This document shows, in pieces, positions 13,008-45,415 of a DNA stretch of 64,000 nt. A model generated the notes under the pieces. That model worked only from the letters and a program-made list of their open reading frames with translations. It was not told the origin of the DNA and did not search any database. The first letter of the stretch is position 1, and every line of letters starts with the position of its first letter. A program made the translations under genes and the position numbers. This stretch comes from Candidatus Omnitrophota bacterium (lineage in GTDB: Bacteria > Omnitrophota > Gorgyraeia > Pluralincolimonadales > Pluralincolimonadaceae): the NCBI GenBank assembly GCA_041651455.1, contig JBAZJG010000004.1, positions 72,848 through 136,847 on the forward strand, given 5' to 3'.

Positions 13008-13011
13008 CTTT

Positions 13012-18242: not shown

Positions 18243-18417
18243 CCCGATAATTTTTGAACCTAAGCTTTCGCTAAGGTGGGTGCCCTGTTAACGTTTTCAT
18301 GCCCCCCGATGGATCGGGGTCCGCAATCCGACGTTAAAGCCGGGCTCCCTATGTATTTTGGTGTTGGCTCAAAATACATCCGGACAGATCGAGCACAGCA
18401 GGGAAATTTTCAATAAA

Positions 18418-24436: not shown

Positions 24437-24451
24437 AGTAATAAAATTAAA

Positions 24452-24528
24452 TGGTGGGCCTAAGAGGACTCGAACCTCTGACCTCTTCCATGTCAAGGAA
24501 GCGCTCTAACCAACTGAGCTATAAGCCC
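24452..24528 (-). tRNA. tRNA-Val (anticodon GAC)
   Basis: Cloverleaf with acceptor GGGCTTA/TAGGCCC, anticodon loop TTGACAT, T arm AGAGG-TTCGAGT-CCTCT, CCA encoded. Its own TTGACT-17-TATAAT promoter lies at 24542-24570. Confidence 0.85.
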
Positions 24529-24570: not shown

Positions 24571-24600
24571 GGATAAATAGGATGGCCTGCGGGCTGGTTC

Positions 24601-24639
24601 ATTAAATTACAAAGGCCGGGGATCTCGGGATCCCCGGCC
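24601..24639 (-). terminator. rho-independent terminator after PEP-CTERM gene 24688-25329
   Basis: Perfect GC hairpin GGCCGGGGATC-cga-GATCCCCGGCC followed by TTTGTAATTT on the minus strand. Confidence 0.7.
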
Positions 24640-24687
24640 ATCTTCCTCGGGTTAGTTGGGGTTGAGGAAGAACATCTTAATAAACGC

Positions 24688-25329
24688 TTATTTAACCGCT
24701 TTTTTCCTTAATCCGAGCAGCCCTACAAGGCCCGATCCGAGTAAAAGAAGGCTCGTCGGCTCGGGAACGGTAAACTGCGCGTCGTCGAACCACACCGTGC
24801 CGGTGGCGCTTGTGCCTGTCCCGGGAGCAAGCAGGGTCAGACGGTAGTCTATATACGCCGCGTTGGCAGGCGCTGTCCTCTCAGCCTCTGACCAGGAGCT
24901 TAAGCTCTGGTACTGCCAATCCCCCGAACCTGAGGTCTGATGGACTATACCTATGCCGCTTCCCAGCTCTTCCTGGCTTGCGTTAAGCCATTTGCACTCC
25001 AGGTACGCCTCTATGTTGCTGAGGTTCTCCCATTTCATCCATACGCCTCCGTCAACGACATCGCCGGGATTTACTGCGAAGATCTGCTTCGCTCCGGCCA
25101 TCTCCCATGAATCGGTCGTAGGACCGGCAGAAAGCTTCAGCGCCTGGCTGCCTTCGTGGACCGAATCGGCAGCGTCGTAATCGATCGTCCACTGCGGGCC
25201 CCAGTTGTAATCAAGCCACGGCCCCTGTCCTGCGCCTTCGAAACCGTAATCTCCGACAGCGTTTGCGCATGCAAAAGAAGGCATTGATATGGTCGTTAAA
25301 ACTGCTAATACGGTAAATAATCCCTTCAT
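24688..25329 (-). CDS. PEP-CTERM-anchored secreted protein with CBM4/9-like carbohydrate-binding domain
   Basis: Signal peptide. C-terminal VPEPTSLLLLGSGLVGLLGLRKKAVK has the PEP motif, a hydrophobic helix and a basic tail. Confidence 0.8.
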   Translation of the reverse strand: MKGLFTVLAVLTTISMPSFACANAVGDYGFEGAGQGPWLDYNWGPQWTIDYDAADSVHEGSQALKLSAGPTTDSWEMAGAKQIFAVNPGDVVDGGVWMKWENLSNIEAYLECKWLNASQEELGSGIGIVHQTSGSGDWQYQSLSSWSEAERTAPANAAYIDYRLTLLAPGTGTSATGTVWFDDAQFTVPEPTSLLLLGSGLVGLLGLRKKAVK

Positions 25330-25370
25330 TTGTTCACCCCCTCTCTTTTTCCTTGGTTTAAAGGTCTATT

Positions 25371-25462
25371 TGTAAACGCTTACATATAAATCTAAAAAAT
25401 AGAGCGCTGTATGTAAGCGCTTACATTACTGAAATGTTATCATCCGTATCATTGAATGTCAA
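25371..25462 (-). promoter_or_regulatory. promoter (-35 TTGACA 25457-25462, -10 TAACAT 25434-25439) plus two cre/LacI-type palindromic operators: TGTAAGCGCTTACA (25412-25425) and TGTAAACGCTTACA (25371-25384)
   Basis: The first is a perfect 14 bp palindrome overlapping the predicted TSS. The second, imperfect copy sits ~40 nt upstream of the start codon. Confidence 0.5.
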
Positions 25463-25467
25463 GATTA

Positions 25468-25824
25468 TTATTTTGCTAATTTTGAGGAATAAATGAGGGT
25501 CTTTACGATAGCTATCGCGACGAATAACGTCGATGACCCGCCCCCCAGGAACACGACTATTGCAGGATGCGTATCGTCGCGTACCGGAATAAGGAAGCAG
25601 GCTATCGCCGTTACCAATACCGGAACGGACCATATTACCATCTGGCGGCCGCCGTATGCATTTATCTCATACCATAATTCAGGCGACTTGAACGCTTTCG
25701 GCAACCTGAACCCGTACCAGTAATTCATCGGTATCTTGCGCTTGGCGAGGGGGATACCAAGGGCGATAAACAGCAATCCCATTACCAGATTTATAGCGAT
25801 AAATGATGCCTGTGTATTTCCCAT
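25468..25824 (-). CDS. small membrane protein, possibly SdpI/YhfL-family
   Basis: Three to four TM helices and NYWYGFRLPKAFKSPELW motif. Preceded by a TTGACC-17-TATACT promoter. Confidence 0.35.
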   Translation of the reverse strand: MGNTQASFIAINLVMGLLFIALGIPLAKRKIPMNYWYGFRLPKAFKSPELWYEINAYGGRQMVIWSVPVLVTAIACFLIPVRDDTHPAIVVFLGGGSSTLFVAIAIVKTLIYSSKLAK

Positions 25825-25870
25825 CTTCTTCCCTTTTTGATTAAGTATACACCATAAGTCGGACCCGGTC

Positions 25871-25906
25871 AAAAACAAAAGGGCGGGGATCTCGGGATCC
25901 CCGCCC
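25871..25906 (-). terminator. rho-independent terminator after PEP-CTERM gene 25953-26579
   Basis: GGGCGGGGATC-cga-GATCCCCGCCC hairpin followed by a T-tract on the minus strand. Confidence 0.7.
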
Positions 25907-25952
25907 CTCTTCCTCGGGTTAGTTGGGGTGTTTGAGGAAGATATTTACCGGA

Positions 25953-26579
25953 TTATGGCCTTTTCCTTAAACCGAGAAGTCCGACAAGGCCTGAACCGAG
26001 AAGAAGCAGGCTCGCGGGCTCGGGTATCGGCGCTGTATCAAGGTAAGCATCATCAAAGTAAGCGGTGCCAGAACCGCCGTCTACGGTCTGGTTCACGAAG
26101 AAAGCCAAAGACGCGTATGACGCGGTGACCGGGGCGGCGCCGCTTATATTAAGGGCTGTCCAGTCATGCGTGCCAGTAAGCACCGGGGACGCGCCGGCCG
26201 TGCCGACCCATCCGCCCGTCGAGTTGAACCAGTCTATCTTGACAAAGGCCTCTTCATTGACAAGGGCGTTGGTCTTGGCGAATATTGTGCCGTAATACGT
26301 GGTGCCGGGTGTAACGGCAGCCATCGTGTTGCTGTACATGAAATAATCGTCGCCCGTGCCGGATGCGCTGTTCGATGTTATCTTCGTCGACTTAACGCCG
26401 GTCCTTGCGGCTTCGGTGCTGCCGTATGTGCCGGTGTGCTGGCTGTTTCCCCAGAGGCCAAGCCACGGGTCCGGGGCCGTATTTTCAAAGCCTGAGTTCG
26501 TGAGCATGTTAGCGGCTTCCGATGCGGAAGCGCTGAACATTACCGCTATAGCTAAAACCAATATTGCGATAAATTTCAT
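25953..26579 (-). CDS. PEP-CTERM-anchored secreted protein with CBM4/9-like domain
   Basis: Signal peptide. NMLTNSGFEN...W start typical of CBM_4_9. C-terminal IPEPASLLLLGSGLVGLLGLRKRP. Confidence 0.8.
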   Translation of the reverse strand: MKFIAILVLAIAVMFSASASEAANMLTNSGFENTAPDPWLGLWGNSQHTGTYGSTEAARTGVKSTKITSNSASGTGDDYFMYSNTMAAVTPGTTYYGTIFAKTNALVNEEAFVKIDWFNSTGGWVGTAGASPVLTGTHDWTALNISGAAPVTASYASLAFFVNQTVDGGSGTAYFDDAYLDTAPIPEPASLLLLGSGLVGLLGLRKRP

Positions 26580-26591
26580 CTCTATTCTCCT

Positions 26592-27122
26592 TTAGTTTCC
26601 TTTTTCTATAGTAGCGTCAAAATCATCGAAACAGGCCTCACCTGTGGAACCGGCCACGCCTCTTGCGTATCCGAGCACCCTTGCTTCGATCGCTCCCGCA
26701 GGCGCTTTGCCGTTGACCTCCAGCTTCTTCCAGGCCGTGGCGCCCCTGATATGTTCGCTCTCTTTATGCCCTGAGCTCAAAGGGCCTGCGCTTCCCCAGA
26801 ACTCAAGCCGGACAAAGGCCTCGGCGCCGTTGGACAACGCTTTCGAGTCCGGGCTCATTACCCATGCGCTGGCTTTCACCATCTCGCCGGGATTGACCGG
26901 TATCTGCTGCCCATAACAACCCTGCCCTAATCCCTCGACCTGCCTGCATGCCGCTTTCTCCCCGCTGTATTTATACTCGGATGTCACTATCCCGCTCGTG
27001 GCCTGGTCGTTCCAGTTGTACCAGCTCTCCTCTTCCGATTCGAAGCCGGGATTGATCATGTCATTGGCATGGCAAGCGGAACATATCGACATGGCAATAA
27101 CCGCCGATAACAGCTTCTTCAC
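26592..27122 (-). CDS. secreted CBM4/9-like protein without PEP-CTERM anchor (GTG start)
   Basis: Signal peptide, MINPGFESEEESWYNW domain start, no C-terminal sorting signal. Co-transcribed with the 25953 gene. Confidence 0.5.
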   Translation of the reverse strand: MKKLLSAVIAMSICSACHANDMINPGFESEEESWYNWNDQATSGIVTSEYKYSGEKAACRQVEGLGQGCYGQQIPVNPGEMVKASAWVMSPDSKALSNGAEAFVRLEFWGSAGPLSSGHKESEHIRGATAWKKLEVNGKAPAGAIEARVLGYARGVAGSTGEACFDDFDATIEKGN

Positions 27123-27236
27123 TTGTTCACCTCCCTCCTTTACTCATAAAATAGTTTCTCATTACTAAATTGTTTTACTATACTGCAAAAATATACCACC
27201 TGCGCATACCATTGTCAAGCGTAATAAATTGTTATT

Positions 27237-28937
27237 TTATGGTGCTTTTTCCAGGGTAAGAGGATTGAATTTGTTCTTGGCGAATATGTACCATGAGGCC
27301 ACGGATACCGTCCCCATATCGGCCCTGCTCCAGTTATAGCCGCCTTCCCTGTTCGCAGTATACGGTATAGTACGGCCCTTCGCCCCCTTGATATTCCTGT
27401 CGACGAGGAAAGCATCCATCTGGTTGGCGTAGAAATACCCTCTTTCCTTGTCGCCTTCGGTAATATACGCGCACGCAATATGGCCTGTACCGTCAAGCCA
27501 TATATTGTTTATGTTTATGTCGGCATGATCGAAGAAACCCATAACTTCTTTGCCGTTCACATTCAACGTCTTGCGGTACCTGAGGTCATATTCCGGGATG
27601 TTCAACAGGGACGCCGTTCCTTTGCCGTATGCAAGGACCCTCCAGGTATAGTTATCCAGCGGAAGCGTATTGCCTTTCAGTACCGAATCGAGCCATATGC
27701 GTATCTTGTCGGCGTACGCGTCCTCCTTGCAGAGTTTTAGCGCGGCATAGCAATCGATATTGCCTTCCGGATGCCCGCCGTCCTCATGGAGCTTCTTGTC
27801 CCCGCTCCTCCATCCGTGCTGTATATAACCGCCTTTTCCGCCCGGATCGTCCTTATACCATGATATCAACAGGTCTTTCAGCATCCCCGTAATATCCCTG
27901 TATCTCTCCGGCCCGTATTCCTTCTCGTAATATTTGTACGCGATAAGAAGCCACGCCATGTCGCCCATCCAGCGGTCCGCCTTGCCGGGGTTATGGTACG
28001 CCGGAAGGTTCCCCTCGTTCCTTAGGTTCACGTACTGGAAGAACCCTCTCGCTTCCCCTTTATAAAAGAAATTCTGGTATGACGGGCACCTGTTATTCCT
28101 GTCCGTTGACTGGGCGTAGAAATCGAGTATGCGTTCCGCCCTTTCTTTTTCGCCCTTCAGGATGAACGCCATCGCGACGAGCGAATTATTGAACGTGTGC
28201 GCCTGATTATCTTCCGCGGTCGGGAGAAGCTGCTTGTCTTCGGAGAAGTTATCCTGGCACAGCTTGAGCCATTCCAATACGAGCGGGTCCTCCGGTACAA
28301 GCTCTGCGTCCCTTCTCTGCTTGAACCCGATGCCTTTCAGTTCCCTGTCCGGGTCAAGCACCGGGCCCACGACCGAGAATGAGGCCGGCAACCCCGGCTT
28401 GCCTAAACCGATCTCGTCCAGGTCCACCGTGCCTTTTCCCTTGCCGGAAAAAGCTATCTCCAGGTTAACAAGCTTATCGAACTTATCGTCCCCGCCCCAT
28501 CCGTATTCAAGGTTATTCCTGTATATCACGACCTCTGTCCAATCCGCATATTTGCCCCTCAGGGGGAATTTCCTGAAGAATACGGAGCCGTCCGCGTCGA
28601 CCAGCTTGATCTCCATGTCCGAAGACGAATCGGACTTGATCAGGAATGTCAAAGGGACATCCTCCGGCATTTTTTCCGTCATCTTCCTGCGTATAAGCAC
28701 CCAACCGTAATCACCCCTGAGCTCATACACCGCCCGGATACCGTCGTCCGACTTTCCCGGCGCGGAGGATATCTCTATGGTACTCTTCCCGTCCATATCG
28801 GCCTTCCACTGGCCAAGGTCGTCCCAGCTCGCCTTCGCGGGGGTTTGGGGCTGCGGCCCGGGTTTTTGCGCTTGCTCATACTCCTTGCAACCGGACACTA
28901 AAAGCAGTAACACCGCCAGACAGGCAACCTTCTTCAT
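27237..28937 (-). CDS. lipoprotein with N-terminal beta-sandwich domain and C-terminal six-hairpin glycosidase-like domain
   Basis: Lipobox LLLVSGC. Paralogous to 32517-34271 (shared WYIFAKNKFNP vs WYIFAKENFNPF motif). Glycosidase assignment is an inference, not motif-verified. Confidence 0.4.
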   Translation of the reverse strand: MKKVACLAVLLLLVSGCKEYEQAQKPGPQPQTPAKASWDDLGQWKADMDGKSTIEISSAPGKSDDGIRAVYELRGDYGWVLIRRKMTEKMPEDVPLTFLIKSDSSSDMEIKLVDADGSVFFRKFPLRGKYADWTEVVIYRNNLEYGWGGDDKFDKLVNLEIAFSGKGKGTVDLDEIGLGKPGLPASFSVVGPVLDPDRELKGIGFKQRRDAELVPEDPLVLEWLKLCQDNFSEDKQLLPTAEDNQAHTFNNSLVAMAFILKGEKERAERILDFYAQSTDRNNRCPSYQNFFYKGEARGFFQYVNLRNEGNLPAYHNPGKADRWMGDMAWLLIAYKYYEKEYGPERYRDITGMLKDLLISWYKDDPGGKGGYIQHGWRSGDKKLHEDGGHPEGNIDCYAALKLCKEDAYADKIRIWLDSVLKGNTLPLDNYTWRVLAYGKGTASLLNIPEYDLRYRKTLNVNGKEVMGFFDHADININNIWLDGTGHIACAYITEGDKERGYFYANQMDAFLVDRNIKGAKGRTIPYTANREGGYNWSRADMGTVSVASWYIFAKNKFNPLTLEKAP

Positions 28938-29149
28938 TGGTATCTCCTTTAGTATATGAGTTTCTTATTACTAAATTGTTTTACCAGTTAATAAAGATAC
29001 CACCGGAATAAGCTTTTGTCAAATATATATTATTTTGCGAAAAAGGGTGGAATGCGGGAAACGCCTAGAATAGAAAAAGGCTCCCAATTCCTGGAGCGGA
29101 AGGTTGGAAGCCTTTTTCGTCCCCCTACTTCTAACTTAACCTGCTTTAC

Positions 29150-29770
29150 TTATTTCTTTCTTCCTAATCCCATCAAACCAACAAGGCCTGAACCGAGAAG
29201 CAACAGGCTTGCGGGTTCCGGAACGGCAGCGACATCAAAGTTGAAGTTGTCAAAATCGCTTTCGCCGGGAACTTCATACGGATCATTCGCGTACGTACCG
29301 AACATGATCCTTGCCGTAACAGCATCGCTCGGAGCTACTATAACGCCGGTGTCCCCAAGGTTATACTGATCTCTTGTCAAGGCTTTCATGTCGACCATCG
29401 TCTTGCTCGCTAACGTACCATTAGCCCTAAGGAACTTGACTCCGATGTATGAACCCCAGCTGTTGGCAACCGTACCCGAAGGAACTAGCGCATAACCGGT
29501 AAGGTTATACGACTGTCCACCCGTGATGGCAACTTCCTGCTTCATACCGCCATCGTTGTAGTTATGAAGATTGTGAGTCCCGCTCACAGGGTTATCGGTT
29601 ACGACAACCTGGTTTTCCGCATTCCAACCGTCAGGCGCATCAGCTGACCAACCGTACGCATAATCTCCGTCTACCGAGATCTCAAAATCACCGTTGACCA
29701 ACAGGTTCGCGCTGGCTACACCAGGCACCAACAGTACCGCTAAGCTTACCAATGCTACTAATTTACCCAT
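29150..29770 (-). CDS. PEP-CTERM-anchored secreted protein with CBM4/9-like domain
   Basis: NLLVNGDFE start. C-terminal AVPEPASLLLLGSGLVGLMGLGRKK. Operonic with 29781-30413 (10 bp gap, RBS AAAGGAG). Confidence 0.8.
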   Translation of the reverse strand: MGKLVALVSLAVLLVPGVASANLLVNGDFEISVDGDYAYGWSADAPDGWNAENQVVVTDNPVSGTHNLHNYNDGGMKQEVAITGGQSYNLTGYALVPSGTVANSWGSYIGVKFLRANGTLASKTMVDMKALTRDQYNLGDTGVIVAPSDAVTARIMFGTYANDPYEVPGESDFDNFNFDVAAVPEPASLLLLGSGLVGLMGLGRKK

Positions 29771-29780
29771 CTTTCTCCTT

Positions 29781-30413
29781 TCACCCCTTTCTTTTTACCT
29801 TTCCCTTATTAAACAACCCTACTCCCAACAATCCACTGCCCAATAACAACATACTGGCGGGTTCCGGAATGGGGGTGGATTCAACGATGAGGTCATCAAA
29901 GATTCCCCTTCCGTCACCACTGCCAGTATTGTTTACTTCCCAAACCATTGTCGCCTTGACTATATCGGATCCGTAGTTTGACGGGGTCACTATAGCCGTC
30001 TTATCGTTCCAAACATTGTCCGTAAGCTCATTACCCGTAAGGCTACCGGTAGTCCACGTTCCTACTATAGAATCGTCCGAACGCTTGAATTCCACTCTTA
30101 ATGAGGCGGATGAACCGTTCCTAAGGGACTCGTTCCCGGCAACATCATCAAACAAATAACCCCCAATCTTATAGGTTGATCCTGGATCTGATATAGCGAT
30201 ATCCTGCCAGCCCGATGTTGCCCACCATCCCGCAGCGGAATAGCTTCCCGAGTTTCCCCAGGTATTTATAGTCGCATTTGTACCGTTCCACTGGCTCCAT
30301 CCGGTAAAATCCCCATTTTCAAACCCGGAGTTTGTCAGAAGATTGGCGTGCGCTATAGGATATGAAGATAACATCATTACAAGGACTGCTATTAATACGG
30401 CTTTTGTCTTCAT
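29781..30413 (-). CDS. PEP-CTERM-anchored secreted protein with CBM4/9-like domain
   Basis: NLLTNSGFENGDFTGW start. C-terminal IPEPASMLLLGSGLLGVGLF...KRKG. Confidence 0.8.
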   Translation of the reverse strand: MKTKAVLIAVLVMMLSSYPIAHANLLTNSGFENGDFTGWSQWNGTNATINTWGNSGSYSAAGWWATSGWQDIAISDPGSTYKIGGYLFDDVAGNESLRNGSSASLRVEFKRSDDSIVGTWTTGSLTGNELTDNVWNDKTAIVTPSNYGSDIVKATMVWEVNNTGSGDGRGIFDDLIVESTPIPEPASMLLLGSGLLGVGLFNKGKVKRKG

Positions 30414-30430
30414 TGCTTCTCAACCCCTTT

Positions 30431-30573
30431 ATCGATACGTGTTTATTAAACAAACGTAATAAACTGTTTCTTCATTCGGTTGATTTTGTATTTTAGAAGT
30501 TGCTATCGTAGAATATATATCGACACGTGTTTACGAATGCATATAATATACCTTAAGAATGTAAATGTGTCAA
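30431..30573 (-). promoter_or_regulatory. promoter (-35 TTGACA 30568-30573, -10 TATATT 30545-30550) plus two ACACGTGT-core operator repeats (30519-30532 and 30431-30444)
   Basis: ATCGACACGTGTTT sits at the predicted TSS and ATCGATACGTGTTT ~20 nt before the start codon. The core is a palindrome. Confidence 0.5.
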
Positions 30574-30620
30574 GAGAATTATATTGCTATTATATAGCAA
30601 ATAGTTGTTATATTGCAGAT

Positions 30621-30649
30621 AAGAAAACAGGGGAACATTTCTGTTCCCC
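30621..30649 (-). terminator. rho-independent terminator after PEP-CTERM gene 30693-31319
   Basis: GGGGAACA-gaaa-TGTTCCCC hairpin plus TGTTTTCTT. Confidence 0.65.
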
Positions 30650-30692
30650 TGTCCGGTTCTCCCTCGGGTTATTGGGGATTGAGGAAAAATAC

Positions 30693-31319
30693 CTACTTCT
30701 TGGCGCTCTTATTTCTTATTCCTATAATACCGATCAGGCCTGAACCGAGAAGCAACAGGCTGGCCGGTTCCGGTATCGGCTGCGTATCGATCATGAAATC
30801 ATCGAAAATACCGCGTCCGTCTCCAGAGCCGCTGTTATTGACCTCCCATACAAGAGTCGCATGGTCTATCCCTGCGCCATAGCTTGCCGGGGTCACTACA
30901 GCCGTCTTATCGTTCCACGTGTTGTCCGTCAGGTCGGCTCCTGTCATGTTACCGGTCGTCCAGGTGCCAACGATGTTGTTGGCCGCGTCCTTAAACTCAA
31001 CCCTTATCGATGCATAACCACCGTTCCTTAAGGACTCGTTCGCGGCAACGTCATCAAAGACGTAACCTCCGATCTTCACCGGCGTATTGGCGTCTGCAAT
31101 GATCGCATCCTGCCAGGCCGATGTCGCCCACCATCCTGCAGCAGAGTAATTTCCGGTACGTCCCCAGCTGTTGATAATAGCATTGGTGTCGTTCCACTGT
31201 CCCCAGTCGCTGAAGCTCCCCGTCTCAAATCCCGCGTTGCTGAGAAGATTTGCGGCGTCCGCCTGGGCCGGTATTACAAGAGCTGCTGCAAACAGAAGCA
31301 CTGCAACCAACTTTCCCAT
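30693..31319 (-). CDS. PEP-CTERM-anchored secreted protein with CBM4/9-like domain
   Basis: Start reset to MGKLVAVLLF (strong SD GGAAAGGAGG). C-terminal PIPEPASLLLLGSGLIGIIGIRNKSAKK. Confidence 0.8.
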   Translation of the reverse strand: MGKLVAVLLFAAALVIPAQADAANLLSNAGFETGSFSDWGQWNDTNAIINSWGRTGNYSAAGWWATSAWQDAIIADANTPVKIGGYVFDDVAANESLRNGGYASIRVEFKDAANNIVGTWTTGNMTGADLTDNTWNDKTAVVTPASYGAGIDHATLVWEVNNSGSGDGRGIFDDFMIDTQPIPEPASLLLLGSGLIGIIGIRNKSAKK

Positions 31320-31340
31320 ATCTTTTCCTCCTTTCCTCAA

Positions 31341-31463
31341 TTCGACACGTGTTGAGTTATTCATTACAATAATCCCTTGCCGGAATTATAGGGATTTATT
31401 TAGAGTGATTCGACACGTGTTTAATTGTTAATTTATTATGCATTAATTAAGTGCCTGTGTCAA
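31341..31463 (-). promoter_or_regulatory. promoter (-35 TTGACA 31458-31463, -10 CATAAT 31435-31440) plus two TTCGACACGTGTT operator repeats (31409-31421 and 31341-31353)
   Basis: Same architecture as the 30431-30573 unit. The repeats flank a small hairpin, ATCCCT-n12-AGGGAT, in the 5'UTR. Confidence 0.5.
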
Positions 31464-31494
31464 GATTAATATATTGCTTTTTTGTAGGACTAAT

Positions 31495-32517
31495 TTAGGC
31501 GGGCTTGACGGACTCCCTCCGGATGTATTCCGGAGTGAATATAACCGTATCATTCTCTACCTTTTTCCCCGATACTATATCCAAAAGCATCTGTGCGGCG
31601 GTCTTGCCTATCTCGACCAGCGGAAGCCTCATGGAACTTAACGTCGGAGATCCCGGGGGAAAAGGGAACATGTCGTTAAAACCTATTACCGAAATATGCT
31701 CGGGGACCGAAAGGCCGGCATCACGTATCCTTCTTATTGCGGCAAGCGCCATGACGTCGTCGGAAGCCACTATGCCGGTGATCCTCGGCTCCTGCTTCAA
31801 CAGGATCCCGGTAGCTTCGTATGCCTTCTCATAGATGAACAACCCTTCGGCCACGAGGTTTTCGTCGAATCCCGCGCCAGCTTCAGATAGCGCTTTTTTA
31901 TATCCGGCGAGCCTGTCCTGGTCGAGTTGGAACCTTAACGCGCCGCTGAGGAACGCTATCCTCTTATGGCCGGTGTCGAGCAATTCTTTTGTCGCCCTGA
32001 AAAGGCCTTCCTTGTTATCTATCAGGACTTTCGGTATCTTTATGCCCTTGATGTACCTGTTCACAAGCACTATCGGGAACTTCTTTTCGAAGAGCGTCGT
32101 CACATCCTTCTCGAGCGCCTCTTCGACAAGTATGCACATGCCGTCGACCCTTTTTTCTTCGAAGGCCTTCATGTAATACGGGGAAAGCGGCTCTTCTTTT
32201 GGCTTGATCGCGCGGGTCAACTGGAAATAATAACCGTTCTTCTCCAGCACTCCGGCGATACCGCTGACCACATGGCTGAAATACGAATAATATATGTCCT
32301 CGAAATCCTTTACCACCACGGCGATATTAAACGTCTTCCTGCTGACAAGGCTGCGGGCTATCACGTTAGGAGTGAAATCGAGGTCCGCGACCACCTTGCT
32401 GACCCTCTCCTGTGTCTTCTTGCCCACCTTCTGAAGGTCCTTCCCGTTAATGACCCTCGAGACGGTGCTTATGGACACTTTCGCCTTTTTGGCTATGTCT
32501 TTATATGTGTATGCCAT
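31495..32517 (-). CDS. LacI-family transcriptional regulator
   Basis: N-terminal HTH (YKDIAKKAKVSISTVSRVING) and periplasmic-binding-protein-like sugar-binding core. It is the last gene of the operon 34923 to 31495. Confidence 0.85.
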   Translation of the reverse strand: MAYTYKDIAKKAKVSISTVSRVINGKDLQKVGKKTQERVSKVVADLDFTPNVIARSLVSRKTFNIAVVVKDFEDIYYSYFSHVVSGIAGVLEKNGYYFQLTRAIKPKEEPLSPYYMKAFEEKRVDGMCILVEEALEKDVTTLFEKKFPIVLVNRYIKGIKIPKVLIDNKEGLFRATKELLDTGHKRIAFLSGALRFQLDQDRLAGYKKALSEAGAGFDENLVAEGLFIYEKAYEATGILLKQEPRITGIVASDDVMALAAIRRIRDAGLSVPEHISVIGFNDMFPFPPGSPTLSSMRLPLVEIGKTAAQMLLDIVSGKKVENDTVIFTPEYIRRESVKPA

Positions 32518-34271
32518 TAATTAAGGTATATCCTATACAGGTTCACCGCGGAATTCCCGCTGCAATCCTCCACCCTTACCTCGAACGTCATCTTTCTTAC
32601 GCCTTCCCTGTCAAATATTCCGTTCCCGTAATTTTGCAATTCCGGGCTCCTCTTGAACCCGTCCTTCATGTCCAGTGAAAAACTCTCCGGCTCGCCGCCA
32701 TAAAGGTATATCGGGATGCTTTCAAATGGCTCGCCTTCTTTGTCATACACTTTTACCTTTATGGACGTTTTCTGCGCGCTGCCGGAAAGCTCCAGGTTCA
32801 ATTTGCCGTACTTTCCCCAATCCTGCGGACAGAGAAAAGGACGGCTGATCGTCCCCCAGCAGGTTTTCGCCGTCTCTTCCGGCTCGATGGTTATCTTCAT
32901 CGTATTTACTAGTTTACCTTTAGATGATGCCGCCGGCGCCAATTTCCTTGATATCTTGCAATGCCCCGCCGAGACCATCTCCGAAGGATACGCCGTCTCG
33001 AATTTTATGCTGCCATCCGTGAAATAGTCTATTACCGGGACGAACTGGAAGGCGGGCTTATAATCGATGCTGTCGACTGTCTTGTTCGCCCGTTCCTCGT
33101 CCTGTCCCATCGAAAATGGGTTGAAATTCTCTTTCGCGAATATATACCAGCAAGTGCTCGATATACATAGCGGGCGGTCCTGCATAATCCAGCTGCCGTA
33201 AGCGGTCGTGCCTTCGTTCGTCGCGTATGGCAATGCCGAAGCGTTCTTGTGGACAGAACTGGCCGTAAGCGCCTTGTCCAGCTCCGACAGGAAATGCGCG
33301 CTCTCGTCTTTCCTTCCGGCCCTGTCGAACGCGAGGACCATCTGGGCTGTGCCTTCCAGCCATACGGAATCTTTGTCCGGATAATGGGACTTTTCGTAGG
33401 TGGAACCGAAATCGAAGCCCTCTATTTCGACACCGTTGACCTTATACATCTTCTTCGTAAGGCTCTTGTCTATCGCGAAATCGAGCGTGGGCCCGTAAGC
33501 GCGCCCGAGCGCGAGGACCGCCCAGCTCGACTGGTCGGTCGCGAAATTAGGGTTGTCCCTGCCCATATTGAACCTTTTCTGTTCTTTGTTCCAGGCGGCG
33601 TTCTCCATCCAGAACTTTATCTCTTTCGCGACGCCGAGGCACCGCATATCGCCGGTAAGCACACCGAGGTCCCTGAACGCTGCATAAGAGTCGAGATTGT
33701 GTTCGACAGATATCCATGTCATCGGCTCCCCGTTTCCGTAATATCCGCCTATGATCCCGCCTTCTATCGACTGCAGCGACATCAGCCATTCAACAAGCGT
33801 CTCCGCAAGGTCCGAATACCTGATATCTTTCGATACATATGTATAATGGTTTATCGCGATGAGCATCCATGCGTTCGGGCCCGCAGCCCACGTCTTTCCC
33901 CAGCGCCCGTCCTTGCGATAGGCATCACTGAACCCTATGAACTTGCCGTATTTCTTTATCTCCTTGCGGTAGGTGCTGTCGAAGAAATCCAGCACCTGCC
34001 TTGCCCTTTTCAAATCGCCGCGGGAGGTAAAGACAATGACGGCAAGGGCCTGGTCATAGGTAAAACAATCGGTCCCGCCCTCATAGCTCGGAAGCAGCCC
34101 CGACGTAAAGAATATCAGGCGCCGGTTCGATTCCTGCTGCGCGACAAGCCACCTGTATGCCTTGTCCGTTCCATCGTCCTGCATCGGGCCGGGATCCTGC
34201 CCCCAGCACACCGGCCCGGCACATAGCACACATAACAACGCAGACGCCGTAAGGGCGCGTATTTTATTCAT
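32517..34271 (-). CDS. secreted six-hairpin glycosidase-like protein with C-terminal beta-sandwich (CBM-like) domain
   Basis: Signal peptide at MNKIRALTASALLCVLCAGPVCWG. Paralog of 27237-28937 with reversed domain order. Function is an inference. Confidence 0.4.
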   Translation of the reverse strand: MNKIRALTASALLCVLCAGPVCWGQDPGPMQDDGTDKAYRWLVAQQESNRRLIFFTSGLLPSYEGGTDCFTYDQALAVIVFTSRGDLKRARQVLDFFDSTYRKEIKKYGKFIGFSDAYRKDGRWGKTWAAGPNAWMLIAINHYTYVSKDIRYSDLAETLVEWLMSLQSIEGGIIGGYYGNGEPMTWISVEHNLDSYAAFRDLGVLTGDMRCLGVAKEIKFWMENAAWNKEQKRFNMGRDNPNFATDQSSWAVLALGRAYGPTLDFAIDKSLTKKMYKVNGVEIEGFDFGSTYEKSHYPDKDSVWLEGTAQMVLAFDRAGRKDESAHFLSELDKALTASSVHKNASALPYATNEGTTAYGSWIMQDRPLCISSTCWYIFAKENFNPFSMGQDEERANKTVDSIDYKPAFQFVPVIDYFTDGSIKFETAYPSEMVSAGHCKISRKLAPAASSKGKLVNTMKITIEPEETAKTCWGTISRPFLCPQDWGKYGKLNLELSGSAQKTSIKVKVYDKEGEPFESIPIYLYGGEPESFSLDMKDGFKRSPELQNYGNGIFDREGVRKMTFEVRVEDCSGNSAVNLYRIYLN

Positions 34272-34923
34272 TCGATAACATGAAATCATCCAGGTATACG
34301 GTGGCTCCCGGGCCGTTGCCTACATCGGCTCCGAAGGCTATGCCGATATTGTCGAGAGATTTAACGTCTATGCCGGACTTGCGCAGTCCGGCTACGGATA
34401 TCGTTATCTTCTTCCATTCCTTCGTGGCCGATTCAACCGATATCTTTGTCTGCGGCATATAACTCGGCGCGTGGCTGTCCCTGAGGACTATTTCCATGTT
34501 CTCGCCGCCGTTCTCGCCCTTTACCCAGAACTCTATGTTCTTGAAGCCGGATATGTCCTTGCTCTTGACCTTCTTCGGGACTGGAACGGCATCGGTTACC
34601 GGGCCCATATCTATCGAAAAACTTCCCCATGCCTCTGATGCCTTGCTTCCGAGGGCGTTGACAAGTCGGAACGATTGCTTCCCGCTATGAACGTTCCTCA
34701 TATCATACCCCGGCACGTCCGGAGCATAGTACCAGCTGAACGGGGTGTTCTTGTCTTCCCAATTAGGTTCCAAAGACCCGTAGACCCCGACCTCGCCTCC
34801 GAGGTTGTTCGGATGGCCTTCAAAATCCGCTATGACTGTGATGCTCTCTTCGGAAAACGATTGCCCAGGAATAAAAAATATAGCGACAGTTACCGCCGCT
34901 ATAAGAAATATCAGTCCTTTCAT
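34264..34923 (-). CDS. secreted CBM-like (jelly-roll) protein
   Basis: Signal peptide. Domain resembles the beta-sandwich modules of the two glycosidase-like proteins. Preceded by a TTTACA-17-TATAAT promoter. Confidence 0.45.
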   Translation of the reverse strand: MKGLIFLIAAVTVAIFFIPGQSFSEESITVIADFEGHPNNLGGEVGVYGSLEPNWEDKNTPFSWYYAPDVPGYDMRNVHSGKQSFRLVNALGSKASEAWGSFSIDMGPVTDAVPVPKKVKSKDISGFKNIEFWVKGENGGENMEIVLRDSHAPSYMPQTKISVESATKEWKKITISVAGLRKSGIDVKSLDNIGIAFGADVGNGPGATVYLDDFMLSNE

Positions 34924-34968
34924 GCCGGCCTCCTTTAGCCTGTATTATAACTCATTGACCTTTCGATG

Positions 34969-35002
34969 TAAACAATGGGGGGCCCGTAATAATCCGGGCC
35001 CC
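34969..35002 (-). terminator. rho-independent terminator after PEP-CTERM gene 35015-35668
   Basis: GGGGCCCG-gattatta-CGGGCCCC hairpin followed by CCATTGTTT. Confidence 0.6.
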
Positions 35003-35014
35003 GCTTGTTAACTG

Positions 35015-35668
35015 CTAGCTTTTCTTCCTTCTACCGAGACCGAGAAGCCCAATCAGCCCTGTACCGAGCAAGAGCATGCTTGCCGGTTCCGGAACGGGCG
35101 CAAACGACATGTCATCCACCCACAGCGTGCTGTTAGGCGAATACGCGCCGCTTGTCGAAAGGGCGACGACGGCAGATACCTTCGTCGTCCCTGCAGGGGC
35201 AGCCGCGGTCGTGACAGAGAGAGGGTGCCATGTGTCTGCCGTTACCGAGTTGTCGAATAAGGCACTCTCATCCACGCGGATGACGTTGCCAAGCGAGTTG
35301 TACCATTTGACCTGAAGCTTGGCTGAACTGCCGTCCTTAAGCGTATCAGCGGAATTCCACAGGAAATAACCATTCAGTAAGTAGGGGGCACTGAAATCGA
35401 TCCCTGTGAAGTCCTCGTTGAAATACGCATAATCGGTGTTGTTTCCGCCCCACATGACAACCTTCGCTGCCTTGGCGCCGCTCATTGCAACCGAAGAATC
35501 ATAGAATGAGTCGCCATTAACGCCGCCGCTCCACGTCCATGGGCCGTCCTTTAAAGCAATAGCCGATCCGCCGAGCTCAAAACCCGGATCGCTCAGGAGG
35601 TTGGCAGATGCCTGCGATGAAAACAAGCCGAATACCGCTACCATCAGTATTACCCTGAATATCTTCAT
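35015..35668 (-). CDS. PEP-CTERM-anchored secreted protein with CBM4/9-like domain
   Basis: Start reset to MKIFRV (SD AAAGGAGGTGA). C-terminal VPEPASMLLLGTGLIGLLGLGRRKKS. Confidence 0.75.
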   Translation of the reverse strand: MKIFRVILMVAVFGLFSSQASANLLSDPGFELGGSAIALKDGPWTWSGGVNGDSFYDSSVAMSGAKAAKVVMWGGNNTDYAYFNEDFTGIDFSAPYLLNGYFLWNSADTLKDGSSAKLQVKWYNSLGNVIRVDESALFDNSVTADTWHPLSVTTAAAPAGTTKVSAVVALSTSGAYSPNSTLWVDDMSFAPVPEPASMLLLGTGLIGLLGLGRRKKS

Positions 35669-35691
35669 TATCTCACCTCCTTTCATTTATT

Positions 35692-35778
35692 GGTTAAACG
35701 TTTTCCTTATAACCCTTTAAAAAAAGGAAAACGATTTCCTTTGCTTTGAAATTTTATCATATCCCAGAATAAAGTCAA
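35692..35778 (-). promoter_or_regulatory. promoter (-35 TTGACT 35773-35778, 16 nt spacer, -10 TAAAAT 35751-35756) plus two GGAAAnCGTTT operator-like repeats (35726-35739, 35692-35706)
   Basis: GGAAATCGTTTTCC and GGAAAACGTTTAACC both have an AACGTT-type centre typical of LacI/PurR-family operators. Confidence 0.45.
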
Positions 35779-35808
35779 GATTATTATATTGTTATTTTAT
35801 AGTAATAA

Positions 35809-36459
35809 TTAGAGGTAATCCGGAAGGATCTTTACTGCTTCGCGTATGAACTTCCTGCATCTTTCGAGCGCGGCTGTCGTGTCGTTATCCGTTATAGCGG
35901 TCCACACCCTTATGGCCGACCCGCCGCTCTTGCCCCCCCTTAGCTGGTTAATGACAAAATACAGCTGTTGCCTGTAAAAATTCTCCGTCATTACGTCGCC
36001 GGCGGTATACCAGTCAAGCATCAGTACCTTGTTCTTCGATATCTGGTAGATCGACTCGTTGGCCGACATCTGCTTTCCCCCGCCGAGATCGATATCCGCC
36101 TTTCCCTGCGTCAACATCTCGGTGCGGCCGCTCCCGAGATAACAATATTCCGGAGGATGGAAACTCTGCCTCTTCTGGTCCGAATATACCACCTGCATCG
36201 ATACTCTTTCGTTGCCCGGCCCGAGGTAGGTGCGTATCAGCACTTTGTCCGTCCCGAGGACCTCATATACCTGTTTCAGGTATTCCTTGTCCTTAAACTC
36301 GACGTTCGCTCCCTTCCACCCGGAAACATCCATGGGGAATGACATCAGCCTGACTTCGCGCGCCGGCGTCCTTTTTATTGACGACATGAAAAATACCGCG
36401 GCCGCGCAAACAGCAAGCATAGTTACGGCTATTGCCGTATTTAGGTCTTTTTTGTCCAC
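35809..36459 (-). CDS. epsI: EpsI-family exosortase-associated protein
   Basis: ~216 aa with a single N-terminal TM helix. Overlaps the 3' end of the exosortase gene, which is the typical XrtA-EpsI arrangement. Assigned by context and architecture. Confidence 0.55.
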   Translation of the reverse strand: MDKKDLNTAIAVTMLAVCAAAVFFMSSIKRTPAREVRLMSFPMDVSGWKGANVEFKDKEYLKQVYEVLGTDKVLIRTYLGPGNERVSMQVVYSDQKRQSFHPPEYCYLGSGRTEMLTQGKADIDLGGGKQMSANESIYQISKNKVLMLDWYTAGDVMTENFYRQQLYFVINQLRGGKSGGSAIRVWTAITDNDTTAALERCRKFIREAVKILPDYL

Positions 36460-37277
36460 GACAACATTCTCCCTGCCAGTATTAATCCCGCTATAGCGAA
36501 TACGTATACGAGGAAACCGAGAAAATCATGTGCAAATGTCCCCGGGGACGCCGCCTTTGCGTCGTAGGCAAACGCTATAAGCAAAAGGAGCACGATCCGG
36601 ATTATGTTCGCCCCTAAGGCGATGGGTATGGACAGCACGAATATCGCGATCTTCTTGACCGTTGACATCTTGATCAGATAAGCATAGAGAGCACCCAGGG
36701 CGGTCAGGGCTATCAGTGAACTAAGGCCGCTGCATGGACTGCCTATAGTAAGGAAGGTATCGGGCCTCAGGTGTACGATGCTGCCGTCCCTGACGGCAGG
36801 TACCCCCATAAGGCTGATTATGAACGTCGCCGCCTGCGCGGCCATCATCTTCATCTTGAAGCTAACGCTTATTATAAAGACCTGCGGCAACGGGACCATG
36901 AACACGAGGAACAGGATAGCAAACGCTATCTTCTTCGTGATCCCTGTGCCGTAAATATAAAGAGACAGCCCGAACAGCGTGAATATCAGAGTGAACCCGG
37001 AGATGAAGTTGATCTCGAAAAAATACGCGAATAAGTGCAGCAGTAAAGCCGGCAGGAACAGCGCAAGGCCGATACCGAGAGGCCTTATTTCCGCATTTTT
37101 GAGCTCATTCCTTCTCAGCCAGACCAGGTATGCGAAAACAAGGGGCACGAGGTAACCGTGCGAATAATATGTGTCGGCTTCCTCGAAACGCGCCGCCATC
37201 CAGACAAAAGTCGGCCAGTAGACCGCTATTAAAAGAGCTCCGACTATAAAAGGCCCGAACCTTGATATAAGTTTCAT
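36441..37277 (-). CDS. xrt: exosortase (XrtA-like transpeptidase for PEP-CTERM proteins)
   Basis: Eight TM helices. Conserved motifs SHGYLVP, catalytic Cys in IGSPCSGLSSL, and Asn/Arg in GANIIRIV. Confidence 0.75.
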   Translation of the reverse strand: MKLISRFGPFIVGALLIAVYWPTFVWMAARFEEADTYYSHGYLVPLVFAYLVWLRRNELKNAEIRPLGIGLALFLPALLLHLFAYFFEINFISGFTLIFTLFGLSLYIYGTGITKKIAFAILFLVFMVPLPQVFIISVSFKMKMMAAQAATFIISLMGVPAVRDGSIVHLRPDTFLTIGSPCSGLSSLIALTALGALYAYLIKMSTVKKIAIFVLSIPIALGANIIRIVLLLLIAFAYDAKAASPGTFAHDFLGFLVYVFAIAGLILAGRMLSWTKKT

Positions 37278-38126
37278 TTATTTGCTTTTGTTTATCGCCT
37301 CGAGCTGCTTCTCGGCAAGTTTAGCAAAAGGGGTATTGGGATATTTTTCCGTTATAAGGCGGTAGTTCAGGGCCGCCTTTTCCGGCTGGTTCGTCTTCTG
37401 CTCGTAGATGGCGCCTGCGACGAAAAGCGCCTTGGGGGCAAGCAGTGTGTCGCCGTGCGCGGCGACCAACGAATCGAGGTACTCCAGCGCTTCCGCCCAT
37501 TTCGCCTGGTCTGCATAGCATGTCACGATAAGGTCGATTGTCACGAGAGCGCCGTACGTTTTGGAGTTGTCGGAGATATATTTCTTATATTTGTCTATTG
37601 CGGTAACGTACGCAGCCGAGGCCTCGTCGTTCTTTCCCTTCAGCTTGTAATATTCGGCGATATGCACCGGGACCTGCAACGCTGTGCCCGTGTCTGGATA
37701 ATCGGACATTATCCTGTTGAGGTTTTCGATCGCTTTCGGCGCGTCATCGGCTGCCTCATATGTTATAGCAACCATATACAGGGCCCTCGAACACAGGTCG
37801 GTGTTCTCCGGATGCTCTTTCAATATCACGAGGAACTCGTCCCTCGCTTTCGCGACGCTTCCCTGTATCGCGTATAACTGCCCGATATTAAACTGCGCCT
37901 GGGCGCTGTTGGGCCACGTCGGGTATCTTATGGTTATCTCCCTGAATTTGTCTATTATCTTCTGGTACTCCACGGGCGAAGCCTTGTCCGGGGCCTGCAG
38001 GAGCTTGTTCAGGTCCTTCGAGGCATGCCAAAACCTCTTCTCGGCGGAATACGTCCCGGAGTCGCATCCGCTTATTGCGGCAGACGCCAGCAAGACCGCG
38101 CAGATTACTGATATCTTCCTAAACAT
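37278..38126 (-). CDS. TPR-repeat lipoprotein
   Basis: Lipobox LLASAAISGC followed by TPR-like repeats. In operon with the exosortase. Confidence 0.6.
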   Translation of the reverse strand: MFRKISVICAVLLASAAISGCDSGTYSAEKRFWHASKDLNKLLQAPDKASPVEYQKIIDKFREITIRYPTWPNSAQAQFNIGQLYAIQGSVAKARDEFLVILKEHPENTDLCSRALYMVAITYEAADDAPKAIENLNRIMSDYPDTGTALQVPVHIAEYYKLKGKNDEASAAYVTAIDKYKKYISDNSKTYGALVTIDLIVTCYADQAKWAEALEYLDSLVAAHGDTLLAPKALFVAGAIYEQKTNQPEKAALNYRLITEKYPNTPFAKLAEKQLEAINKSK

Positions 38127-39429: not shown

Positions 39430-39462
39430 GTTTTTCTCCTTGTACACCAAATTTAGAAGTTT

Positions 39463-39490
39463 AGTATAACACAAAAGTAAACCGTGTCAA
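39463..39490 (-). promoter_or_regulatory. sigma70-type promoter of the PilZ-exosortase operon (-35 TTGACA, 16 nt spacer, -10 TATACT)
   Basis: Near-consensus hexamers in the 31 bp gap after the araC-like gene. Confidence 0.5.
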
Positions 39491-45396: not shown

Positions 45397-45415
45397 TGAT
45401 TCGTTTGTCAAGCGA

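Follow-up and report, generated by a model that had tools for sequence, protein, structure and literature searches.

A 64,000-nucleotide stretch of a Candidatus Omnitrophota genome (GenBank assembly GCA_041651455.1, contig JBAZJG010000004.1, positions 72,848 to 136,847), hereafter the window, encodes an exosortase and its EpsI-family partner followed by six small secreted proteins (P1 to P6) that carry PEP-CTERM sorting signals and domains resembling carbohydrate-binding modules (CBMs). The genes for these proteins occupy an 11.3-kb cargo island between the EpsI gene and a tRNA-Val(GAC) gene, and all genes between 20.4 and 56.3 kb lie on the minus strand (Table 1). Interspersed among them are an untailed paralogue of the six (U1), a second untailed CBM-like protein (U2), the glycosidase-like proteins L566 and L590, a LacI-family regulator, and a member of the SdpI/YfhL family. 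A preliminary description of this block had called it a dedicated polysaccharide-capture or adhesion module rather than generic decoration of exopolysaccharide (EPS). We consider it somewhat more probable than an even chance that the block is a set for capturing and degrading glycans, displayed at the surface through PEP-CTERM sorting.

The six open reading frames (ORFs) that had been proposed to encode PEP-CTERM proteins are all present, and every tail passes both PEP-CTERM models (TIGR02595, 17.7 to 25.0 bits for a cut-off of 16; PF07589, 25.6 to 30.2 bits for a cut-off of 20.7). When a PEP-CTERM regular expression is applied to all six frames of the window, it returns six matches, which are the tails of P1 to P6 and nothing else; the matches are tightly clustered and do not look like chance hits scattered over the sequence. 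Each tail reads [VI]PEP[AT]S[LM]LLLG[ST]GL..., continues into Arg or Lys residues, and ends zero to three residues before the stop codon. By inspection, the leaders are hydrophobic and resemble signal peptides, with an AxA end directly ahead of a conserved NLLxNxGFE. The six proteins are paralogues of one another (25-63% identity, BLASTP E values of 1e-10 to 1e-99), with P4 and P5 sharing 63% identity, and U1 belongs to the same paralogue family. Once leader and tail are removed, the mature domains are acidic (pI 4.1-4.3) and almost free of Cys, with Ser, Thr and Asn together making up 19-32% of residues and aromatic residues 11-13%.

Because all seven CBM proteins have orthologues at 80-94% identity in a sister genome (locus L007; the loci of relatives, each compared as a gene plus 10-kb flanks, carry codes from L001 onward), these ORFs are taken to be real genes. 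Strong ribosome-binding sites back the internal ATG starts used here for P5 and P6, P3 begins 11 nt downstream of P4, and U1 lies 13 nt upstream of P2. The P4 orthologue of L007 (8529-9170) looked at first like a true untailed variant, which we reject since a frameshift falls just before an intact PEP-CTERM tail; this frameshift is either an assembly error or the mark of a recent pseudogene. Public annotation names these proteins as 'PEP-CTERM sorting domain-containing protein' or 'hypothetical protein' only.

The N-terminal domains had been likened to CBM4/9, a proposal that stands at the level of fold and superfamily and falls short at the level of the Pfam family. None of the seven proteins of the window reaches the gathering cut-off of PF02018 (CBM_4_9) at 25.9 bits, the top scores being 21.7 (U1), 19.5 and 14.7 bits. 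P2, the member chosen for structure modeling, yields an AlphaFold model from 70 homologues that is a beta-sandwich with a pLDDT of 89.5. The best Foldseek match to this model in the PDB is the CBM16 structure 2zew (E 9e-10, probability 1.00, TM-score of at most 0.77 by target), and matches to CBM4-2, CBM22 and CBM61 follow (1e-9 to 1e-6 for the set from CBM16 to CBM61), with CBM70 and CBM11 also found; the top 50 PDB matches are mostly CBMs. A profile of the window domains matches CBM16 sequences with E values of 2e-4 to 3e-3. In the alignment the NxxxNxGFE...W motif coincides with that of CBM16, and a WxxW motif lies opposite 'WQDW' in CBM16-1. Trp39 and Trp140 are invariant or nearly so across the family.

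Searched against 1.84 billion representative proteins, the same profile finds 4020 relatives (669 at E values of 1e-10 or better), most of which are large multi-repeat proteins. Among 55 sampled close relatives, 33 pass PF02018 (best E value 9e-62), and five carry GH16. The window domains share with CBM16, CBM4, CBM22 and CBM61 of the PF02018 superfamily the beta-jelly-roll, the N-terminal motif and a C-terminal 'FDD'; unlike the modules of glycoside hydrolases, they are free-standing single domains rather than appendages of an enzyme, and they score below the Pfam cut-off. The P2 model, the profile matches and the relatives that pass PF02018 place the family in the CBM4/9/16/22 superfamily, and its members are candidate sugar binders.

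The gene upstream of the cargo is an exosortase, as had been proposed, and it passes the general models (TIGR02602 and PF09721, Table 1; TIGR04178 signature, 61.9 bits for a cut-off of 23). Its residues Cys182, Asn224, Arg227 and His250 do not vary across 118 homologues, and the clade to which the enzyme belongs is found mainly in Omnitrophota. The enzyme does not reach the cut-off of any named subtype: a check against XrtA (TIGR03109) gives 171.4 bits where 208 are needed, XrtD gives 155 against 400, XrtB gives 113 against 275, and the remaining named subtypes score lower still. The EpsI-like partner likewise passes its model, and its gene overlaps that of the exosortase by 19 nt and directly precedes the cargo. 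In each of the 37 related loci for which 3 kb or more of downstream sequence is available, EpsI adjoins the exosortase. Two genes immediately upstream, for a tetratricopeptide repeat (TPR) lipoprotein and a 280-aa polytopic membrane protein, recur upstream of the exosortases of this clade (L086-L088), each in 14 of 32 related loci. The conserved core is made up of the membrane protein, the TPR lipoprotein, the exosortase and EpsI, and it closes a Wzy-type EPS cluster on the 3' side.

The cargo island also encodes proteins that lack PEP-CTERM tails, and here too the preliminary description was largely borne out. Its unanchored CBM-like proteins correspond to U1 and to U2, the latter a CBM30/CBM11-like protein that narrowly passes the CBM30 model PF21582; relatives of U2 in L088 are called CBM_11. 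Its LacI regulator matches PF00356, PF13377 and PF00532, and the three genes L590, U2 and LacI, which form one unit ending with LacI, are kept together in L007 and L010. Its glycosidase-like (lipo)proteins are confirmed with respect to lipobox and fold, whereas no sequence family could be assigned to L566 or L590 in Pfam, in NCBIfam, by phmmer or by profile searches of the PDB, and only their folds are informative. The model of L566 (pLDDT 92.5) has two domains. The first resembles CBM11 (Foldseek match to 1v0a, TM-score of 0.70 by target; weak CBM11 sequence match, E 0.11), and the second is an (alpha/alpha)6 barrel of the catalytic type, which is present in both L566 and L590. The nearest solved folds to L566 are glycoside hydrolases and other glycan-acting enzymes, and its acidic residues D195, E391, D395 and D428 are invariant. 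L590 shares 25% identity with L566 over about 330 aa (BLASTP E value of 1e-23). On the basis of this model, L566 is a putative glycoside hydrolase, 'glycosidase-like' holding at the level of fold only, and its family is a candidate new glycoside hydrolase family.

Homologues of L566 occur in at least 12 phyla at 45-60% identity. Conservation is strong (50-60% identity) among Omnitrophota, Planctomycetota, Verrucomicrobiota/Kiritimatiellia, Elusimicrobiota, Bacteroidota, KSB1, Lentisphaerota and others, with the cultured Vibrio methylphosphonaticus (L038) and Labilibacter sediminis (L046) among their hosts; the Bacteroidota relatives bear tails of the type IX secretion system. To describe gene neighborhoods we used 79 loci from a genome scan (L007-L085) and four that were looked up singly. 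The most frequent neighbors within 8 kb of L566 are PF10091 proteins resembling family 144 glycoside hydrolases (GH144; 28 loci), L566 paralogues (19), the CBM family (18) and LacI regulators (17). Prepilin-type N_methyl proteins, GH3, sugar-binding proteins, major facilitator superfamily transporters and GH1 recur as well. A GH144-like or GH94 gene lies within 10 kb in 26 of the 79 loci, and both are present in 11; the PF10091 neighbor matches the solved endo-beta-1,2-glucanase 5gzh with an E value of 7e-115. The N_methyl proteins, of about 220-280 aa, adjoin L566 homologues in nine loci of the PVC group (for example L002 7150-8004, L001 10744-11400 and L077 2252-2953, plus six other loci).

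A member of the CBM family accompanies L566 in about 26 of the 79 loci. An untailed CBM protein, a PEP-CTERM CBM protein and L566 are found together in L001, L008, L010, L011 and L013-L015, which belong to Auribacterota/UBP3 and Omnitrophota. L566 and a PEP-CTERM CBM protein also occur together in Planctomycetota (L002, L036, L062) and in Kiritimatiellia/Verrucomicrobiota (L077, L078). By comparison, a metagenome scan found CBM cargo next to the exosortase in just two of 37 more distant exosortase loci, and the side-by-side arrangement is met mainly in the lineage of the window. The evolutionarily stable partnership is that of the CBM family with L566, and not that of the CBM family with the exosortase.

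The island itself varies. The space from EpsI to tRNA-Val(GAC), which delimits the island also in L007 (17790-17866), L011 (11867-11943) and L087 (13601-13677), is between 2.1 and 14.7 kb long across four related genomes, of which that of the window is one. The shortest island (L087, 2.1 kb) holds two PEP-CTERM genes, one of which (12408-13508) encodes a GH26-like enzyme with its own PEP-CTERM tail; catalytic PEP-CTERM cargo is rare according to the original survey. At 6.2 kb, the island of L011 comprises an L590-like gene, L566, and genes for one untailed and three PEP-CTERM CBM proteins, and the 14.7-kb island of L007 has the gene set of the window plus a 3.5-kb insertion. Elsewhere in the clade, the genes downstream of EpsI in L086 are a LacI gene and five PEP-CTERM genes, of which three belong to the CBM family. 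Those that follow EpsI in L088 encode GH94, GH35, a sugar-binding protein and three CBM11 proteins of small size. Because the space between EpsI and tRNA-Val varies and CBM cargo seldom adjoins distant exosortases, the cargo block is an exchangeable island at a fixed chromosomal site, which carbohydrate-active content tends to occupy in this lineage.

Regulatory DNA links the same gene families. The leader of P1 contains two 14-bp palindromes of the LacI type, TGTAAACGCTTACA and TGTAAGCGCTTACA, which stand 41 bp apart, are the sole sites with zero or one mismatch in the 64 kb, and are both kept ahead of the P1 orthologue in L007. Of 34 occurrences of TGTAANCGNTTACA with no more than one mismatch in 2.09 Mb of sequence from the loci compared, 22 are located directly ahead of genes of the CBM, L566/L590 or LacI families, where 1.0 of the 34 would be expected in that 3% of the sequence (binomial P of about 1e-25). 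The 22 take in the two P1 sites and the two of its L007 orthologue. The background for this value is all sequence and not intergenic sequence only, such that the true enrichment is somewhat smaller, yet still large. These upstream sites span 16 loci in several phyla; examples are L019 1946, L032 9926 and 13135, L075 6494 and 12560, and L086 15991 and 16044, the last two being placed ahead of a PEP-CTERM CBM gene that adjoins the exosortase. The enrichment of TGTAANCGNTTACA before CBM, L566 and LacI genes suggests a conserved LacI-type regulon under a sugar-responsive repressor, one that would unite the glycosidase-like family with the PEP-CTERM CBM genes.

Other sites in the island differ from these. 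P4 and P5 each have two upstream copies of AAACACGTGTCGA (core palindrome ACACGTGT; chance expectation 0.75), which is probably the operator of a different regulator. Six genes (P1, U1, L566, P4, P5 and P6) have their own predicted promoters, recognized by consensus match and by conservation between genes, in which a near-consensus TTGACA, a spacer of 16-17 nt and an extended -10 element follow directly on a conserved AT-rich UP-like element. Terminator-like hairpins, likewise matched by consensus, stand 3' of P1, P2, P3, P5 and P6. Sites of the -24/-12 type, as in the sigma-54 promoters of proteobacterial PEP-CTERM genes, were sought and not found in the window. A 26-nt element occurs as 96% identical copies in the leaders of U1 (27153-27178) and L566 (28959-28984), between the -10 element and the ribosome-binding site. 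Rfam returns tRNAs and 6S RNA only, and the leaders of the cargo genes thus show neither a riboswitch nor any further known RNA.

A full Wzy-type EPS locus (40-56 kb), with regulators of cyclic di-GMP (c-di-GMP) signaling among its genes, ends with the exosortase. In order of transcription, this locus encodes a GGDEF cyclase, a secretin, a chain-length determinant, a tyrosine autokinase, a GT2 glycosyltransferase, two GT4 enzymes, Wzy_C, GT9, a GH20b-like protein, GT1, a WecA-like transferase, the AraC/PocR and PilZ proteins (a pair also present in L087), the 280-aa membrane protein, the TPR lipoprotein and the exosortase. The chain-length determinant narrowly misses its XrtA-type model TIGR03007 (274.8 bits for a cut-off of 278.85). 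Among the ORFs scanned between 40 and 56 kb there is no match to Wza or Wzx. The orphan secretin adjoins the chain-length determinant at the place expected for a Wza/OPX exporter, and could be the outer-membrane route for EPS or for PEP-CTERM cargo. Because the exosortase ends a full EPS locus, the separation of the cargo from EPS that the preliminary description had drawn is not upheld.

Several other features frame the locus. The GH20b-like protein (42609-44291) sits among the EPS glycosyltransferases and is kept in L086 (1-1689), L087 (2335-3972) and L088 (2161-3972), with a GH123 protein at a similar place among the glycosyltransferases of L088. GC content is 39-45% across the glycosyltransferase/Wzy part (42000-50000) and 50-58% elsewhere, as is typical of an exchangeable serotype-like cassette. 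Genes for tRNA-Leu and tRNA-Cys (56378-56553) delimit the other side of the EPS locus. Beyond tRNA-Val(GAC), downstream of the cargo, lie housekeeping genes. The threonyl-tRNA synthetase ORF as mechanically listed (22700-24496, TTG start at 24496) overlaps this tRNA, and the true start is therefore probably a downstream ATG (MELDTLRH...). Rfam places a 6S RNA gene at 18219-18407.

Table 1. Features of the exosortase locus and its cargo island (window coordinates; scores in bits)
Feature	Coordinates	Strand	Description
tRNA-Val(GAC)	24452-24528	-	Distal edge of cargo island; ARAGORN and Rfam
Terminator-like GC hairpin after P1	24611-24678	-	85% identical copy after P2 at 25878-25945
P1	24688-25329	-	Secreted single-domain CBM-like protein, PEP-CTERM tail, 213 aa; TIGR02595 24.2, PF07589 30.0; family hidden Markov model (HMM) E 1e-42
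LacI-type palindromic operators, P1 5' leader	25371-25425		TGTAAACGCTTACA 25371-25384 (one mismatch); TGTAAGCGCTTACA 25412-25425 (perfect)
P1 promoter cassette	25434-25482	-	AT-rich UP-like element, TTGACA, 17 nt, TAACAT; consensus match
SdpI/YfhL-family protein	25468-25878	-	Small membrane protein; PF13630 51.7
P2	25953-26579	-	CBM-like, PEP-CTERM tail, 208 aa; PF07589 27.1
U1	26592-27122	-	CBM-like paralogue, signal peptide, no PEP-CTERM tail, 176 aa; HMM E 9e-34
Promoter cassettes similar to that of P1	27190-27238, 28994-29030, 30545-30593, 31435-31483, 35751-35798		
L566	27237-28937	-	566-aa lipoprotein (lipobox LVSGC); N-terminal CBM11-like beta-sandwich, C-terminal (alpha/alpha)6 barrel (predicted)
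P3	29150-29770	-	CBM-like, PEP-CTERM tail, 206 aa; TIGR02595 21.9, PF07589 25.6
P4	29781-30413	-	CBM-like, PEP-CTERM tail, 210 aa; TIGR02595 17.7, PF07589 27.1
AAACACGTGTCGA copies, P4	30432-30444, 30520-30532		
P5	30693-31319	-	CBM-like, PEP-CTERM tail, 208 aa; TIGR02595 19.5, PF07589 26.8
AAACACGTGTCGA copies, P5	31342-31354, 31410-31422		
LacI-family regulator	31495-32517	-	Last gene of U2-L590-LacI unit; PF00356 57.9, PF13377 110.4, PF00532
L590	32517-34289	-	Secreted paralogue of L566 barrel plus extra C-terminal region of about 190 aa; no Pfam/PDB match
U2	34264-34923	-	Secreted, CBM30/CBM11-like, untailed, 219 aa; PF21582 29.1 (cut-off 27)
P6	35015-35668	-	CBM-like, PEP-CTERM tail, 217 aa, first gene past EpsI; TIGR02595 25.0, PF07589 30.2
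EpsI-family exosortase partner	35809-36459	-	TIGR02914 81.5 (cut-off 42.8), PF11984 103.8
Exosortase	36441-37277	-	278 aa; PF09721 199.5, TIGR02602 148.6 (cut-off 105.55)
TPR lipoprotein	37278-38126	-	
280-aa polytopic membrane protein	38130-38972	-	
PilZ-domain protein	38965-39474	-	
AraC/PocR regulator	39506-40336	-	
EPS biosynthesis genes	40385-52597	-	WecA-like GT4, GT1, GH20b-like, GT9, GT4, Wzy_C, GT4, GT2, tyrosine autokinase (TIGR01007 144.6, cut-off 108), XrtA-type chain-length determinant (TIGR03007)
Orphan GspD/PilQ-type secretin	52601-54217	-	Secretin, Secretin_N and STN domains; head of EPS locus
Response-regulator/GAF/GGDEF diguanylate cyclase	54204-56264	-	Head of EPS locus

The closest described arrangement is that of XrtA (EpsH1-type) in EPS-producing Proteobacteria (Haft et al. 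2006, PMC1569441). In both systems the exosortase is short and stand-alone, EpsI is a separate protein, and several PEP-CTERM paralogues lie close by. Both are embedded in an EPS locus whose products include glycosyltransferases, a Wzy/O-antigen-ligase-like protein, a chain-length determinant, a TPR lipoprotein and a tyrosine autokinase. Unlike the XrtA system, the window misses the models for the PrsT-type TPR protein (21.4 bits for a cut-off of 312), the tyrosine kinase (TIGR03018, 144.9 for 230.65) and the ligase (TIGR03097, 86.1 for 188). PrsK and PrsR were not seen within the window, the predicted promoters are sigma-70-like with UP-like elements rather than sigma-54, and a secretin stands where a Wza-type exporter is expected. 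By sequence, the system belongs to the exosortase, EpsI and PEP-CTERM families and lies outside XrtA and the other named subtypes.

The cargo, too, can be compared with that of known systems. The cargo of the window has a recognizable CBM fold, whereas among classical PEP-CTERM proteins fewer than 10% have a match in Pfam (PMC1569441). PepA of Zoogloea and Aquincola and the cargo of cyanoexosortase B in Nostoc (PMC12188702) are likewise small secreted PEP-CTERM proteins encoded near exosortase and EPS genes, and for all of them an extracellular end point and an interaction with polysaccharide are expected. However, relatedness to PepA is limited to the tail (15-35 bits for the PepA model, with a cut-off of 80 bits, almost only in the C-terminal region), and the CBM4/9-superfamily domains, glycosidase-like genes and LacI control set the window apart from PepA and the Nostoc cargo. 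A further likeness, which we draw by analogy, is to the surface glycan-binding proteins (SusE/SusF-like) and surface endo-glycanases of Bacteroidota, where non-catalytic CBM-like binders also stand beside a lipoprotein glycanase and a sugar-responsive regulator. The window is not a member of that group: domain scans of all genes between 24.6 and 40.3 kb detect neither SusC nor SusD, and anchoring would proceed through PEP-CTERM and exosortase instead of lipidation. Loci for beta-1,2-glucan degradation, which combine GH144, GH94 (1,2-beta-oligoglucan phosphorylase), GH3 and GH35 enzymes (PMC12102758, PMC8861115), are related through the L566 family, whose genes adjoin such enzymes in the 26 loci counted above, and the (alpha/alpha)6 barrel is common to L566 and enzymes of the beta-1,2-glucanase clan.

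If the block does serve surface capture and degradation of glycans, the CBM proteins would be exported by Sec and then retained in the inner membrane by the helix of the tail. The exosortase, acting through Cys182, Arg227 and His250, would cut at the PEP motif and hand the cargo to an acceptor, and the cargo would reach the cell surface or the EPS layer. There, the CBM proteins might capture glycan beside L566 as a surface lipoprotein enzyme, which would cut a polysaccharide of the beta-glucan type with beta-1,2-glucan as the leading candidate, and a sugar-responsive repressor of the LacI type would switch at least part of the set. The steps from export to display follow the general PEP-CTERM model, itself partly tested (PMC12188702, PMC1569441), while glycan capture next to L566 under LacI-type control is suggested by fold, synteny and operators. 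The data show directly which genes are present, to which families the tails, the exosortase, EpsI and LacI belong, which folds are predicted, how gene order compares between genomes, and that the operator is enriched. The domains have a predicted CBM-type fold and the tails pass the PEP-CTERM thresholds, the two points on which the preliminary description had said that its reading could fail. Its polysaccharide-capture module gains support from the co-occurrence of CBM and L566 families across phyla and from the LacI-type operators, and is not upheld as a dedicated pairing of exosortase and CBM proteins.

Several observations weigh against this scheme. In published models, PEP-CTERM proteins hold the cell's own EPS (PMC12188702, PMC1569441); the EPS-linked arrangement is the classical one (PMC1569441), and the cargo may bind the EPS made next to it. 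The pairing of exosortase with CBM cargo is rejected as a general one by its rarity among distant loci. Possession of a CBM fold is no proof that a sugar is bound, the PF02018 cut-off is missed by all seven proteins, and CBM16-like domains without demonstrated sugar binding exist (PMC5651945). The block in the window is without a transporter, GH144, GH94 or GH3 gene, and no full utilization pathway is visible in it. The LacI-type operator stands ahead of P1 only, while other cargo genes bear different upstream motifs. Beta-1,2-glucan as the leading candidate substrate is a lead from the gene neighborhoods of other genomes, where the GH94 neighbors are of ambiguous specificity.

The main alternative is a role in organizing the EPS matrix, which we regard as possible, at a likelihood well short of even. 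The six PEP-CTERM CBM proteins would then bind the cell's own EPS, the product of the adjacent 40-52 kb locus, and tether or cross-link it at the surface, with L566 and L590 trimming or remodeling that EPS. Such a role has been proposed for PEP-CTERM proteins of Nostoc and of floc-forming Betaproteobacteria. The complete EPS locus that the exosortase terminates, in which regulators of the GGDEF and PilZ types are encoded, fits this role, as do the published models of EPS retention (PMC12188702; PMC1569441; PMC9850573) and the composition of the cargo, rich in Ser, Thr and Asn and almost devoid of Cys, which is the classical PEP-CTERM profile (PMC1569441). Glycosidases are also common in EPS loci, and the GH20b-like gene provides one here. 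However, CBM and L566 genes travel together in the absence of exosortase or EPS genes within 10 kb, beside GH144, GH94, GH3, transporters and LacI, which is a catabolic signature. LacI-type operators precede both the CBM and the L566 families, and the content of the island varies among relatives that retain the EPS and exosortase core; each of these speaks against matrix organization.

It is improbable that the proteins are adhesins whose lectin-like domains attach the very small Omnitrophota cell to the glycan coat of a host or prey organism. A host-dependent way of life has been described for Omnitrophota. In such a case the purpose would not be nutrition, and the glycosidase-like proteins would help to breach the coat. 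The fold is typical of lectin- and CBM-type binders, the divergence of six paralogues with variable loops suggests several targets, and each gene has a separate, strong-looking predicted promoter. Nevertheless, nothing in the window points to an apparatus for host interaction, and free-living polysaccharide degraders (Planctomycetota, Kiritimatiellia, and Bacteroidota with L566 relatives) carry this gene pair together with LacI control and phosphorylases. We give very little credence to the proposal that the beta-sandwiches are structural, spacer or protein-binding modules with incidental glycosidase-like neighbors, for although PF02018 scores are low, CBM16-like domains can lack demonstrated binding (PMC5651945) and the jelly-roll also matches phage fiber and protease domains, the top structural and sequence matches are nearly all CBMs with ligands bound in experiments, the domains are rich in aromatic residues, and the family co-occurs across phyla and has operators in common with the glycosidase-like family.

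Surface glycan capture and degradation, if extended to other genomes, leads to a broader and more tentative proposal, which we think less likely to hold than to fail. In Omnitrophota, Auribacterota/UBP3, Planctomycetota and Kiritimatiellia, exosortase sorting may have been recruited to anchor polysaccharide harvesting outside the Bacteroidota. Free-standing CBM proteins would act like SusE and SusF, L566 would be the founder of a new glycoside hydrolase family with beta-1,2-glucan or a similar beta-glucan as substrate, and the set would form a LacI regulon marked by TGTAANCGNTTACA. A literature search gave nothing specific on PEP-CTERM in combination with Omnitrophota, with carbohydrate binding or with glycoside hydrolases, and no paper that describes the pairing seen here.

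The function of PEP-CTERM proteins has been open since 2006, as most have no recognizable domain and the few that have been studied point to 'EPS retention'. The cargo described here has a defined fold of the ligand-binding type, and both its enzymatic partner and its operator are conserved; these features make PEP-CTERM cargo function testable. If the proposed role is correct, exosortase sorting would join lipidation, as in Bacteroidota, and anchoring by sortase or cohesin, as in Firmicutes, as a third means of fixing a glycan-capture apparatus to a cell. The same result would define a new and widespread glycosidase-like family, present in at least 12 phyla, and would add to the scant knowledge of how uncultured Omnitrophota feed or attach.

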